Below are positions 1-5,815 of a stretch of 5,815 nucleotides of DNA, piece by piece. This DNA is from a virus. Lineage: Duplodnaviria > Heunggongvirae > Uroviricota > Caudoviricetes. Made by a program: the position numbers and the translations under genes. Position 1 is the first letter of the stretch, and the number at the start of each line of letters is the position of its first letter. The notes under the pieces are model-generated. The model ran no database searches and was not told where the DNA came from. It was given only the letters and a program-made list of their open reading frames with translations. The stretch lies in IMG/VR virus record IMGVR_UViG_2740892211_000008. The stretch is one strand, 5' to 3'.

Positions 1-81
1 CAAAATCGGTGGAGCTGCATGACAAAGTCATCGGGCATTATCTGAACATAAAACACTATCAATAAGTTGGAGTCATTACCG
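1..81. repeat. Left copy of a perfect 81-bp inverted repeat at the window terminus
   Basis: Positions 1-81 are the exact reverse complement of 5735-5815 (81/81). Identity breaks at position 82 versus 5734. The repeat may continue beyond the window edge, which cannot be seen. Confidence 0.95.
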
Positions 82-191
82 CATCTGTTATGGATAAAAA
101 TGAAGTCGTACGACAGAGTCTTGTTGATTATATCGACTCGCTTCAACCTGGCACTTTCAATCATGAGAGCTTCAATCATGAGAAAGAGCAT
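1..191 (-). CDS. Partial outward-reading ORF of unknown function; 37 unique codons then 26 codons encoded by the repeat; continues past the left edge
   Basis: The minus-strand frame is open from the stop at 270-272 through position 1. From ATG at 191 it reads MLFLMIEALMIESARLKRVDIINKTLSYDFIFIHNRC, then the repeat-encoded GNDSNLLIVFYVQIMPDDFVMQLHRF. No convincing Shine-Dalgarno before any of the candidate ATGs (191, 179, 164), so start and reality are uncertain. Confidence 0.25.
   Translation of the reverse strand, partial: MLFLMIEALMIESARLKRVDIINKTLSYDFIFIHNRCGNDSNLLIVFYVQIMPDDFVMQLHRF
156..183. repeat. Tandem direct repeat, two copies of TTCAATCATGAGA (156-168 and 171-183)
   Basis: Exact 13-bp unit repeated with a 15-bp period; each copy contains the palindromic hexamer TCATGA. 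Lies between the 106-aa gene and the left inverted repeat. Confidence 0.8.
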
Positions 192-213
192 GTTAAGTCT
201 GTAATTAATTCTC

Positions 214-534
214 TTATTTTGAATCAAAAGAATTAATGCTTTTTGTTGAAAAGTAATTTTCAAGGGGTTCTATTCGAATTCCTTTCTTTTTCATTAACAA
301 GCCAAGCCCCTTATCAATGATGTCCATTAGATCCAGGAAGTATTTTTCATGTAAATCCTGGTTATCAGAGAGCTGCTTCTCTTCGTACAGACCGATAAAG
401 GCACGACGCACGTTACCGGATATAGTATCGATGGTTTCTTTTTCTACGGTACTCAGGTCAAGAGTCGCCAGTTGGGAACGAACTATATTCGCTGCCATTT
501 CCTGGAATTGCATTGGTAAATCTTTAAATTCCAT
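214..534 (-). CDS. Hypothetical 106-aa protein, AT-rich cargo gene at the distal end of the leftward operon
   Basis: ORF of 106 codons with GAGG about 8 nt upstream of the ATG at 534. Visibly lower GC than the neighbouring immunity genes. No signal peptide or transmembrane segment apparent and no family recognised. Confidence 0.6.
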   Translation of the reverse strand: MEFKDLPMQFQEMAANIVRSQLATLDLSTVEKETIDTISGNVRRAFIGLYEEKQLSDNQDLHEKYFLDLMDIIDKGLGLLMKKKGIRIEPLENYFSTKSINSFDSK

Positions 535-556
535 TATTAGCCTCGTTGGTTAGCTA

Positions 557-775
557 TTAACGTGGGTATGTAATCATTCTGGCAATGCTTAATGCCGCTG
601 CTTTTTCCAGATTGGCGATACCCTGCTCCAGAGCGGACAGATTTTCAGCCTGCTTAGCCCTGGCTTCATTGGCCCATTTCAGATCCTGCGCTGCATTAAT
701 TTTCTGGCGCATCCACTCATAAAGTTCATCATCGGTATAGTCTGGCGCGATGATGACGGGTTCTCGTTTCTGCAT
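557..775 (-). CDS. ydfC: YdfC-like small prophage protein (72 aa)
   Basis: 72-codon ORF with GAGGA 7-8 nt upstream of the ATG. It is the third small gene downstream of the DicA-like repressor, matching the remembered Qin order dicA-ydfA-ydfB-ydfC and the remembered YdfC length (72 aa). The symbol rests on synteny and length, not on a sequence alignment. Confidence 0.6.
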   Translation of the reverse strand: MQKREPVIIAPDYTDDELYEWMRQKINAAQDLKWANEARAKQAENLSALEQGIANLEKAAALSIARMITYPR

Positions 776-804
776 ACTGATTCCTCGCGGTGCTGCTTCG
801 CTTA

Positions 805-933
805 TCAGCCGTTAGATTTTGCCGAGCTGGAAAGCGCCTGTTTAAACTCACTGAAGCTGAGAGCTTCTTCGCCTTCGGCAAGGCCTTCGAAGTATTCTTC
901 GTAAGCCTTTTCCATGATTGTGTCGAAATCCAT
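805..933 (-). CDS. ydfB: YdfB-like small acidic protein (42 aa); absent from the ORF track because it is short
   Basis: Minus-strand translation gives MDFDTIMEKAYEEYFEGLAEGEEALSFSEFKQALSSSAKSNG then stop. AGGTGA sits 5-6 nt upstream, and the ATG is 1 nt after the upstream gene's TGA (tight coupling). Length and position match remembered Qin YdfB (42 aa). Confidence 0.55.
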   Translation of the reverse strand: MDFDTIMEKAYEEYFEGLAEGEEALSFSEFKQALSSSAKSNG

Positions 934-934
934 A

Positions 935-1090
935 TCACTCACCTGAGTTTCTTTCCAGCCAGCGACGGGCACCATTTTCGGTTTTAAACGTTTTGCTTTT
1001 GGTATACGTCATCGCGGTGAATGTGCCGTCCTGGTTGGGAAACACGCCGTACACCAGAGATTCGTTGTTGCCAAGACCGATAGTATCCAT
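935..1090 (-). CDS. ydfA: YdfA-like small prophage protein (51 aa)
   Basis: Start chosen at the internal ATG at 1090 (MDTIGLGNNESLVYGVFPNQDGTFTAMTYTKSKTFKTENGARRWLERNSGE), which has GAGGT 5 nt upstream. The 69-aa version in the ORF track has no RBS. Length and position match remembered Qin YdfA (51 aa). Confidence 0.6.
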   Translation of the reverse strand: MDTIGLGNNESLVYGVFPNQDGTFTAMTYTKSKTFKTENGARRWLERNSGE

Positions 1091-1159
1091 GTTGACCTCA
1101 TTTCCCCTTAACGCCGGAGTAGCGGAACTGTTTGCTGAGAACACCGTGCGGTGTCTTGA

Positions 1160-1225
1160 TGAGTGAAATTTAGAATAACCTAAGTCATATGGTCAAGATT
1201 TTTATGTAGAAAAACCTAAGTTTTT
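1160..1225 (-). promoter_or_regulatory. Candidate leftward promoter and operator region upstream of the ydfA-like operon
   Basis: Minus strand has TTGACC (complement of 1191-1196) and a weak -10-like hexamer around 1168-1174. The 10-mer GACTTAGGTT (complement of 1177-1186) lies in the spacer, and a second AACCTAAG copy is at 1213-1220. The same 10-mer recurs in the repressor/cro intergenic region. Confidence 0.4.
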
Positions 1226-4004: not shown

Positions 4005-4036
4005 TTTGAGAAGTAATTTTTACCGGGAGGAAATTT

Positions 4037-4783
4037 ATGGAGACTGTTTTTGACGCACTGAAAGCGATGGGAAAAGCCACGTCGGTAGAGCTGGCTGCGC
4101 GACTTGATATCAGTCGTGAAGAAGTGCTGAACGAGCTGTGGGAACTGAGAAAGGCTGGCTTCGTTGATAAAAGCGTATACACCTGGCGTGTGGCTTATAA
4201 CAACGTTCAGCAGGAACAGCCAGCGCCGGCAGAACTGTCGGAAGAAACCACCACGGCAACAGTCGCTAAAATTTCGGAGTGCGATTTAACTGCGACGGTT
4301 GAACAACGCGGACCACAAACGGCTGATGAGCTGGCTACGTTGTTCGGTACAACATCACGCAAAGTGGCTTCAACGCTGGCAATGGCAATCAGCAAAGGTC
4401 GTCTGATTCGTGTAAACCAGAACGGTAAATTTCGTTACTGCATGCCGGGCGATAAGTTACCAGCAGAGCCGAAATCCGTGCCGGTAACGGAAAATGATGG
4501 TAAAGCCTTTCCTCAGCCAGCAGGTGTTGCGTTACCAGTACAGGAAGCTGCAACACAGGAAGATATTAAAACAGAAACTGTGGCTGATATTGTGCAATCG
4601 TTGCCATCGTTTACTGAAACGCGAGCGGATGACCTGGTTTTACCATCGCTGCATATGGCAAACCGCGAATTGCGTCGGGCGAAAAGTCATGTCCAGAAGT
4701 GGGAGCGAGTCTGCGCCGCGCTGCGGGAGCTGAACAAGCACCGAGATATGGTTGCCGGGATTTGTCGGAAGTCCGGGCAATGA
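4037..4783 (+). CDS. Prophage protein with two winged-helix-like modules (248 aa), function unknown
   Basis: GGGAGG RBS 7 nt upstream of the ATG. N-terminal segment [33 protein letters not shown] and a second segment [33 protein letters not shown] both look like winged-helix recognition modules. Possibly a DUF1627-type prophage protein, but that is a recollection only. Confidence 0.6.
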
Positions 4784-4944
4784 GCGGATGGTGCAGGCCT
4801 GAAATTATGATACTAACAATGAAGGTAAAATGCATCGGCAGTCTGATTGGTCGTAGTGAGGCGGCGGTCAGGATGAAAGCCCGAGTTAAGGGAATAAGCC
4901 TGATTCTGCGGGGTAATTTTCACCAGTCAACAAAATATCCGTAG
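4780..4944 (+). CDS. Small hypothetical ORF (54 aa), possibly coupled to the upstream gene
   Basis: ATG at 4780 overlaps the upstream TGA (ATGA arrangement). Translation [54 protein letters not shown]. Weak RBS and no recognisable family. Confidence 0.3.
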
Positions 4945-4981
4945 CGCGATAACGGTCAAAAATCATGGCGCTGACACTTTT

Positions 4982-5224
4982 GTGCCACTGGAGATGACTG
5001 TACCTAAGTTCAGGGGAGAAGAACACGTCCGGTGGGATGGTCGGGCCAGATTTAAAGGGCAGGTCATGGCTCCAGCCAGTACGCTGGCAATGGAGGCTGC
5101 CTGGCTGGAAATTGATATGGGAACCACGCCACTCAGGGATTTACTGCCGGTCCAGAGAATAAATTCCTGTTACGGTTACACCACTGTGATCTTGCAAGTG
5201 CAGGAAAGTAGGTCTACACGGTAA
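4982..5224 (+). CDS. Hypothetical ORF (80 aa from GTG 4982, or shorter from ATG 4994), possibly a gene remnant
   Basis: Open frame only. No good RBS for either start and no recognisable domain. Sits where the phage module gives way to the AT-rich right arm. Confidence 0.25.
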   Translation: MPLEMTVPKFRGEEHVRWDGRARFKGQVMAPASTLAMEAAWLEIDMGTTPLRDLLPVQRINSCYGYTTVILQVQESRSTR

Positions 5225-5450
5225 CGCGAGTGCGTGTAACTTTTGATGTTATTTCCGTAGAAACACCGGACAAATTTTCGCTGGCAGGTCATGCTGAAGG
5301 TATAAATCTGCAGATTATGGACAATTACGGATATCCGGCAAGAGCCGGAAAAAGCATGCCGCCTCTAATTCTCAGTGGAAGATGGACTTGATTATACTCA
5401 TTGCATTGTCAGAAATAGTTATCCATTAAAGGCTGGCTATTCCAAACAGG

Positions 5451-5478
5451 ATGTTGATTACAAAAATGTAATCAACAT
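5451..5478. promoter_or_regulatory. Perfect 28-bp palindrome (12-bp arms, 4-bp spacer), candidate operator upstream of the secreted-protein gene
   Basis: ATGTTGATTACA-AAAA-TGTAATCAACAT; the two arms are exact reverse complements. About 165 bp upstream of ATG 5643 and just upstream of a consensus -10. Confidence 0.6.
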
Positions 5479-5504
5479 GTAAGGTTTATACTCTTCAATA
5501 TGCG

Positions 5505-5510
5505 TATAAT
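5505..5510 (+). promoter_or_regulatory. Consensus -10 hexamer TATAAT, candidate promoter for the right-end gene
   Basis: Exact TATAAT at 5505-5510 in an AT-rich leader. No good -35 at 17 bp (AGGTTT), which suggests activator dependence or an extended -10 type promoter. Predicted start about 5517. Confidence 0.3.
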
Positions 5511-5642
5511 TTTCCTTATTTTGTTAACTTTAAATAACAAGCTATGCACGAGGTAAAGTCGGATAAGTTTATCTGGATGTAATATATATTATTTGTAGTG
5601 TTTATAACTTTATTTCATGATAACCAATAAAAGGAGTTTTTT

Positions 5643-5815
5643 ATGAGGAACATAATGGCAGGTTTTTTAATATTCCTGTCTTCTGCTGCTTATGCTGATA
5701 TCAATCTGTATGGTCCTGGTGGCCCGCATACAGCCGGTAATGACTCCAACTTATTGATAGTGTTTTATGTTCAGATAATGCCCGATGACTTTGTCATGCA
5801 GCTCCACCGATTTTG
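5643..5815 (+). CDS. N-terminal part of a secreted protein of unknown family; continues past the right edge through the inverted repeat
   Basis: AAGGAG RBS 6 nt upstream of ATG 5643. Translation MRNIMAGFLIFLSSAAYA|DINLYGPGGPHTA has a classic Sec signal peptide (basic n-region, hydrophobic core, AYA cleavage motif). The repeat-encoded GNDSNLLIVFYVQIMPDDFVMQLHRF follows, and the frame is still open at 5815. Confidence 0.6.
   Translation, partial: MRNIMAGFLIFLSSAAYADINLYGPGGPHTAGNDSNLLIVFYVQIMPDDFVMQLHRF
5735..5815. repeat. Right copy of the perfect 81-bp inverted repeat at the window terminus
   Basis: Exact reverse complement of positions 1-81. Lies inside the outward-reading ORF that starts at 5643. 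Confidence 0.95.

Follow-up and report, generated by a model that had tools for sequence, protein, structure and literature searches.

Introduction

The Qin (Kim) cryptic prophage of Escherichia coli K-12 is organised around the dicA-dicC immunity genes and the ydfABC-dicF-dicB operon. A related prophage type, OI-57/CP-933O, is found in enterohaemorrhagic E. coli (EHEC) O157:H7, where it carries the adhesin gene adfO/paa together with ckf; O103, O26, O111 and O145 strains have the same module. Prophage island OI-57 is the location of adfO/paa, which is always accompanied by the hok-like gene ckf (PMC8565820). A third group of prophages, designated 'PPompW' (LC567818-LC567841), resides at ompW. 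Here we describe a 5,815-nt stretch of viral DNA, IMG/VR record IMGVR_UViG_2740892211_000008, which is referred to in its entire length as the window. Its two ends are inverted copies of one sequence, which we identify as the end of insertion sequence 1 (IS1), and immediately inside each copy lies an AT-rich arm. The window most probably represents a known paa-carrying prophage in which IS1 has cut two AT-rich modules, sequenced as a draft contig that breaks within IS1 on both sides.

The interior, 5,655 bp in length, is early-region DNA of a lambdoid prophage of the Qin/DicB type, in its paa/adfO-carrying form. The window itself contains a repressor/Cro pair and O/P-type replication genes, and intact relatives add DicF, dicB, an exonuclease gene and an integrase gene beside tRNA-Ser/mtfA. 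The OI-57/CP-933O type has the same immunity and replication genes, is 95.8-99.7% identical in nucleotide sequence over window 537/1102-5735, and shares with the prophage of the window the order DUF1627 gene, small open reading frame (ORF), fimbrial pseudogene, paa, sok/hokD, rem, DUF968 gene and rusA. The paa-sok/hokD order in these prophages matches the published association of paa with ckf (PMC8565820). The OI-57/CP-933O type differs in having an intact paa and no IS1. At the left arm, its O157 version (locus L005) has a different 135-aa variant, and in another relative (L001) no cassette is found at that place. The 'PPompW' prophages are 95.7% identical over window 407-5734, an interval that takes in the right arm and paa. 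They differ in integrase, attachment site and ydfB/A region, have the left arm only in part and lack IS1. Qin has the same backbone, but only about 280 nt, at 89% identity, are common to K-12 and our replication-core query. Its annotation includes neither a 590-bp cassette like the one described below nor paa, and its immunity specificity is different, the immunity region of the window being only about 60% identical even to that of a dicA-type relative (L002).

Results

The terminal repeat consists of two IS1 ends

The window begins and ends with a perfect 81-nt inverted repeat (1-81 and 5735-5815). Positions 1-80 and 5736-5815 are identical, at 80 of 80 nt, to the insB-proximal end of K-12 IS1A, and more than 5,000 plasmids match the same sequence at 100% identity under annotated IS1A/IS1B transposase genes. 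IS1 thus accounts for 80 nt of the repeat at each end, whereas bases 81 and 5735 belong to the target DNA and are complementary by chance. On the left (1-80, plus strand) the window starts in the insB-proximal right end of IS1 (right inverted repeat, IRR), with the transposase gene reading inward, the insB stop codon at 63-65 and a translation ending in ...KHYQ*. On the right (5736-5815, minus strand), the same end of a second copy is found in the opposite orientation, and the contig stops inside the element. Since the IRR faces the interior at both ends, the IS1 copies stand in opposite orientations and each transposase gene points inward; each copy is broken off at 80 nt, which leaves only the final 21 codons of insB in view. 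A circular molecule with a single IS1 is ruled out by the presence of one and the same IS1 end (IRR) at both contig ends. Excision of a lambda-dv-like replicon by recombination between the IS1 copies is ruled out as well, as inverted repeats invert rather than excise the DNA between them.

A second IMG/VR contig, L011 (IMGVR_UViG_2740892210_000004; 5,807 nt), corresponds to window positions 5-5811 and stops symmetrically within IS1. It is 4 nt shorter at each end, and its terminal repeat measures 77 nt instead of 81 nt. Since 77 and 81 are both common k values in assemblers, the two contigs appear to be separate assemblies or trimmings of one data set. The window is essentially one whole draft contig, broken in IS1 on both sides. 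Its ends would be k-mer-limited breaks at which short-read assembly failed to cross the multicopy IS1, and the length of the repeat, set by the assembly break, would then be technical, not biological. The same symmetric, assembler-determined ends in the two contigs could be turned against the structure itself, by supposing that the two junctions do not lie on one molecule and were brought together from a mixed population or by a mis-join of the assembly graph. We regard such an artefact as very improbable. By its uncultivated virus genome (UViG) naming the record stems from a single genome, both junctions are on one contig with no alternative IS1-free path reported, and a mixed population would not make either IS1 insertion any less real.

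The exact YdfC protein of the window was indexed in 258 blocks of the collection, and in 166 of them the longest contig carrying it measured only 5-20 kb. Draft assemblies thus often place this prophage region on a short contig, perhaps owing to repeats that flank it.

IS1 interrupts genes within one continuous prophage stretch

IS1-free relatives were identified by an exact-protein lookup with the ydfC allele of the window, which retrieved 10 loci. Nine of these are IS1-free prophages that carry both arms and adjoin mtfA/tRNA-Ser. The closest of them (L012) is collinear with window 81-5735, with two mismatches in 5,655 nt and no gaps, and the other eight match the same interval in one collinear block at 99.8-99.9% identity. 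In all nine, paa and a 91-aa hypothetical gene in the left arm are intact. Comparison with the uninterrupted sequences shows that in the 91-aa gene the left IS1 follows codon 40 (...ttcatttctt|gcatctgtta), and that in paa/adfO the right IS1 follows codon 31 (...gcatacagcc|ttgcttgatg). Because the IS1-free prophages are collinear with the whole interior, the sequence comparison shows that the arms and the core are one continuous prophage stretch that IS1 entered later.

The insertions are confined to the source of the window. Junction-spanning queries against 5,426 complete E. coli genomes found no IS1 at either junction, the exact left junction had no match in species-representative genomes, and among viral contigs the junctions were present only in the IMG/VR source contig. 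The interior was matched by 59 plasmid records, none with the IS1 junctions. An exact lookup of the 48-aa truncated ORF, made for IS1-disrupted assemblies, returned only genes cut at contig edges.

These results bear directly on the proposal of the initial annotation that the arms are foreign cassettes attached to, or delivered by, a shared repeat. The arms are indeed compositionally foreign and variable among relatives, and each abuts a copy of the repeat. However, they occur without IS1 in hundreds of genomes, and the left arm, the core and the right arm are found together in nine intact prophages at 99.8-99.97% identity. The repeat is IS1, and it cuts ORFs inside modules that extend past it on both sides. 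Together with the lack of the IS1 junctions in all 5,426 genomes, these findings make a cassette-on-repeat origin extremely improbable. The accompanying suggestion that the window does not form one uniform prophage segment is right as to composition and mosaic ancestry, but not as to continuity, since the interior is one collinear stretch in the closest relatives.

IS1-flanked compound transposons are an established class, with Tn9 and Tn1681 as examples, and the window resembles them in having two IS1 copies around a few kilobases of DNA. The two inverted IS1 ends that bracket the 5.65-kb segment could accordingly be those of a composite transposon that moves the immunity and replication module as a unit. 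Such a unit was not found elsewhere in E. coli genomes, plasmids, phages, viral contigs or species representatives. Unlike the compound transposons, the IS1 copies here disrupt resident genes in situ with no sign of movement, and the exact collinearity of the interior with resident prophages is what in-situ insertions predict. A composite transposon is therefore highly unlikely.

The arms are AT-rich parts of variable accessory modules

The base composition of the window was analysed by a sliding-window GC profile and per-segment counts, and codon usage by GC content at third codon positions (GC3). The left arm (82-534) has 37.5% GC (32.0% in 82-300 and 42.7% in 301-534), and the right arm (5225-5734) 36.3% (32.0% in 5401-5734 and 25.8% in the spacer at 5483-5641), against 49.5% in the core (535-5224). 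Interior windows of equal length were as AT-rich as the arms in only 3% (left) and 1.5% (right) of cases, and all of these overlap the arms themselves. Two minor dips occur in the core, one of 38.7% GC at 1101-1400 that coincides with operator-like repeats and an intergenic region, and one of 40.3% at 2701-3000 that coincides with iteron-like repeats. GC3 was 0.30 for the 91-aa gene, 0.39 for a 106-aa gene in the left arm and 0.35 for paa, compared with 0.47-0.60 for core genes, among which the repressor gene (0.40) is an exception. The AT-richness of both ends relative to the core, as first noticed from the sequence, was thus confirmed by both measures. The further observation that each arm carries an outward-pointing accessory gene is correct for the complete 106-aa ORF on the left and, on the right, for paa, of which only the first 31 codons are present. 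It is incomplete in that the left arm also contains the remnant of the inward-pointing 91-aa gene cut by IS1, and that the rest of the right arm consists of the end of a fimbrial pseudogene, which reaches to about 5482, and an AT-rich spacer.

Module limits were defined by pairwise alignments. The left arm belongs to a 590-bp cassette with two genes and 37.6% GC, located between ydfC and dicF at window coordinates -53 to 536. The window retains 456 bp of it (81-536), and 134 bp more lie beyond IS1. The cassette is a clean indel relative to L001, in which positions 6000 and 6001 are adjacent, and to L004; in L002, DicF is placed between the cassette and dicB. The right arm forms the middle of a module of about 1.76 kb that is sited between the DUF1627 gene and hokD (4754 to about 6510), with 44.2% GC overall and a minimum of 25-30%, and of which about 775 bp lie beyond IS1. 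The core, in this comparison of modules, has 49.4% GC. The outer edges of the arms are thus IS1 insertion points and assembly breaks rather than ends of cassettes, and the modules continue past IS1.

The presence of the modules varies across core-bearing relatives. Among the complete E. coli genomes, 907 have the replication core (at least 80% coverage), 573 the right arm and 198 the left arm; no genome combines everything, and the whole window is covered to 89% at best. We also sampled seven relatives evenly down the core identity ranking. The right arm was found in one of the seven and the complete left arm in none, with other genes filling both slots, and three of them have a copy of the 106-aa gene of about 91% identity in a different arrangement. 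In L002, L004 and L006-L010 the right module is replaced by other genes, including DUF977, DUF4406, Ea22-like and HNH genes, which always lie upstream of sok/hokD. Genome counts and sampled relatives together bear out the view of the arms as compositionally distinct accessory modules that vary among relatives sharing the core.

This pattern supports a reading of the arms as phage cargo genes, or morons, which are present or absent between conserved backbone genes and deviate in composition; both features are found here. A terminator-like hairpin follows directly after the paa stop codon, and another after the 91-aa gene. Promoter scans yielded promoter-like matches no more often than in shuffled sequence. 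As a difference from the morons of lambdoid phages, the 106-aa gene is oriented with its operon.

Part of the right module appears to be captured non-phage DNA, because the fimbrial pseudogene (aligned part, 4985-5441) is about 85% identical to the intact second subunit gene of a chaperone-usher operon (4923-5510 in both L023 and L024). Sequence similarity suggests that such an operon was the source of the DNA beside paa. The operon comprises a regulator, two subunits, an usher, a chaperone and a fibrillin subunit, and occurs on chromosomes and plasmids.

Some further features of related loci were noted. In L008-L010, the left slot (approximately 2660-4450) contains a Rha-family regulator gene, matches to the C4 antisense RNA and isrK, and a duplicated dicB fragment; ydfC is absent from these loci, and a gene of the 106-aa type abuts the DUF1391 gene. 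Further downstream in the prophage of L001, in the direction of the late region, matches to the small RNAs STnc100 and AgvB (anti-GcvB) were found at 15934-16186.

IS1 insertion in AT-rich cargo as a probable explanation for the position of the arms

The arrangement is most probably explained by two IS1 copies, inverted and with their insB-proximal ends inward, that inserted in two AT-rich accessory modules of a single prophage. The left copy entered the 590-bp cassette within the 91-aa gene, and the right copy the module formed by the fimbrial remnant and paa, inactivating paa. The AT-richness of the arms would itself derive from horizontally acquired cargo. IS1 may first have landed in one cargo module, and a second copy, possibly by a local hop, in the other, 5.65 kb away. 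IS1 produces target duplications of 8-9 bp, recognises no strict motif, prefers AT-rich targets and inserts with a bias toward nearby sites (PMC5009759; PMC10359306). The location of AT-rich arms just inside the repeats would then be best explained by the preference of IS1 for AT-rich regions. Two simple insertions predict a left outer flank of ...GCAATTTCATTTCTT followed by GCATCTGTT (or 8 bp) and the left end of IS1, and a right outer flank of the IS1 left end followed by CATACAGCC and TTGCTTGATGCAGCC....

The regional composition is consistent with such targeting. When 400-nt windows were centred on the insertion points, they ranked at the 5.2nd and 4.2nd GC percentiles of the 16.2-kb intact locus, whose two lowest-GC tracts correspond to window 5357-5700 and 7-400. 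The joint chance that two random sites would lie in such low-GC DNA is approximately 0.2%, in a test that is post hoc and covers two events.

Several observations weigh against this explanation. At fine scale, a 50-nt window at the right site has 54% GC (80th percentile) and is not AT-rich, which makes the targeting argument a regional and post hoc one, and the presumed 9-bp targets GCATCTGTT and CATACAGCC have 44% and 56% GC. The outer IS1 flanks, the target duplications and the full 768-bp elements lie outside the window, and the predicted outer junctions (IS1 left end plus up to 14 nt plus the remainder of either paa or the 91-aa gene) had no match in viral contigs. Deletions or an inversion may have occurred at the IS1 copies, and with inverted copies the junctions alone, we reason, do not separate two simple insertions from a later inversion or a duplicative inversion.

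The fine-scale composition, the small number of events and the dispensability of cargo to the host could also mean that the structure arose as described, but that the proximity of IS1 to AT-rich DNA reflects coincidence or tolerance of insertions in cargo, with no targeting. We consider this unlikely, if the least so of the alternatives weighed here. Both sites lie in the lowest 5% or so of 400-nt GC windows, a regional AT preference of IS1 is documented independently, and most of the prophage is dispensable, so that tolerance alone does not single out these two tracts. The AT preference of IS1 probably contributed to the observed structure, and local hopping may have added to it.

Genes of the left cassette

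The left cassette has two convergent genes. The 91-aa hypothetical gene is represented by its 3' remnant of 51 codons plus the stop codon (81-236, plus strand) and is intact in L002 (6880-7155) and in L012. The 106-aa ORF (214-534, minus strand) is complete, points in the direction of the dicB operon and belongs to phrog_6937 (E = 1.9e-68). It may be transcribed from the dicB-operon promoter. The 91-aa gene had no match in Pfam, PHROG, PADLOC or NCBIfam, and for the left-arm proteins as a group, searches of Pfam, NCBIfam, PADLOC and PDB sequences gave no match, with PHROG families of unknown function as the only hits. Homologues of the 106-aa protein retrieved by homology search are all unnamed, have no Pfam domains and come from Escherichia or Salmonella only. 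A single-sequence AlphaFold model predicted a helical bundle of low confidence (predicted local distance difference test score, pLDDT, 65).

The N-terminal 55-67 residues or so of the 106-aa protein are common to phrog_6937, 1363, 2151 and 9419, whose C-termini differ, and variants of 108, 109, 124, 133 and 135 aa occur in relatives (L003 5384-5791; L008 4061-4435; L013 8242-8568). The terminator-like hairpin after the 91-aa gene, with its T-run (261-300), lies just 3' of the stop codon, where it overlaps 3' coding sequence of the convergent 106-aa ORF. The model of the 106-aa protein has its lowest confidence in the final 12 or so residues.

The IS1-bounded structure of the window leaves no novel reading, and the left cassette is the only element with residual novelty. 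The cassette might encode a small phage function not described before, for instance in superinfection exclusion, as a toxin-antitoxin pair or against host defences, a possibility to which we assign a low probability. If it were true, the conserved N-terminus with swapped C-termini across PHROGs would mark a modular effector family.

Gene content of the core and the right module

Genes were identified from the annotation of near-identical E. coli loci and from family scans (Pfam, PHROG, PADLOC and NCBIfam). Next to the left cassette, ydfC, ydfB and a ydfA-like gene (DUF1391) of the dicB operon occupy 557-1090 on the minus strand, at 96-100% identity to the annotated genes of L001 and L002. A scan of the window with Rfam detected no RNA family, and in intact relatives the small RNA DicF and dicB are located just past the position of the left IS1. 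The immunity region (1292-2003) consists of a gene for a DicA-like helix-turn-helix repressor (1292-1699, minus strand; Pfam HTH_3, E = 8e-14) and an annotated Cro/DicC-like gene (1776-2003, plus strand). Operator-like repeats of the sequence TAGAAnAACCTAAGT (1168-1229, 1722-1739) are present as two direct copies 3' of the repressor gene and an inverted copy between the repressor gene and cro, a layout that resembles the arrangement of left and right operators (OL/OR).

All remaining genes are on the plus strand. Annotation and Pfam identify a YdaT-family gene (1987-2538), a DnaT-like/O replication gene (2510-3550) and a P replication gene (3543-4004); they are followed by a DUF1627 gene (4037-4783; Pfam DUF1627, E = 1.7e-96). 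Within the O/DnaT-like gene, at 2796-2992, a 17-nt iteron-like repeat (AAnACACCCAAAAACGG) occurs four times and CAAAGACACCCAAA three times. These repeats explain the GC dip and strong A-skew at 2701-3000, and the region is probably the replication origin of the prophage.

The right variable module starts with a 54-aa ORF (4780-4944), the breakpoint relative to L004, L006 and L008 lying at approximately 4753. The fimbrial subunit pseudogene (4994-5482), annotated as such by RefSeq in L001 and L005, has a frameshift, an internal stop codon and a lost N-terminus. It is followed by the AT-rich spacer 5' of paa (5483-5642), the most GC-poor tract in the entire 16-kb early region of the prophage. 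The final feature is paa/adfO (5643-5735), encoding an AcfC-family adhesin, of which the first 31 codons with the signal-peptide region remain, at 100% identity to annotated paa of many EHEC genomes; the identity to annotated paa is 100% over window 5616-5735. Full-length Paa of L001 matches SBP_bac_11 (E = 1.6e-34). With 31 codons left, paa in the window is non-functional. The truncated gene reads into IS1 with no stop codon within window 5643-5815 (MRNIMAGFLIFLSSAAYADINLYGPGGPHTA followed by GNDSNLLIVFYVQIMPDDFVMQLHRF...), and the predicted signal-peptide fusion ORF may be expressed.

Discussion

The situation described here is ordinary and already known in kind, namely IS1 within AT-rich morons, here of a lambdoid prophage already known to carry paa. 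As a strain-specific disruption of prophage cargo, which includes the adhesin gene paa, it carries little biological weight. It does call for caution in another respect, since the inverted repeat that bounds a contig-sized window may reflect how an assembler renders a multicopy insertion sequence, and AT-rich arms beside such repeats are to be expected because IS1 favours AT-rich, horizontally acquired DNA. More generally, the case illustrates morons as preferred landing pads for insertion sequences in lambdoid prophages.

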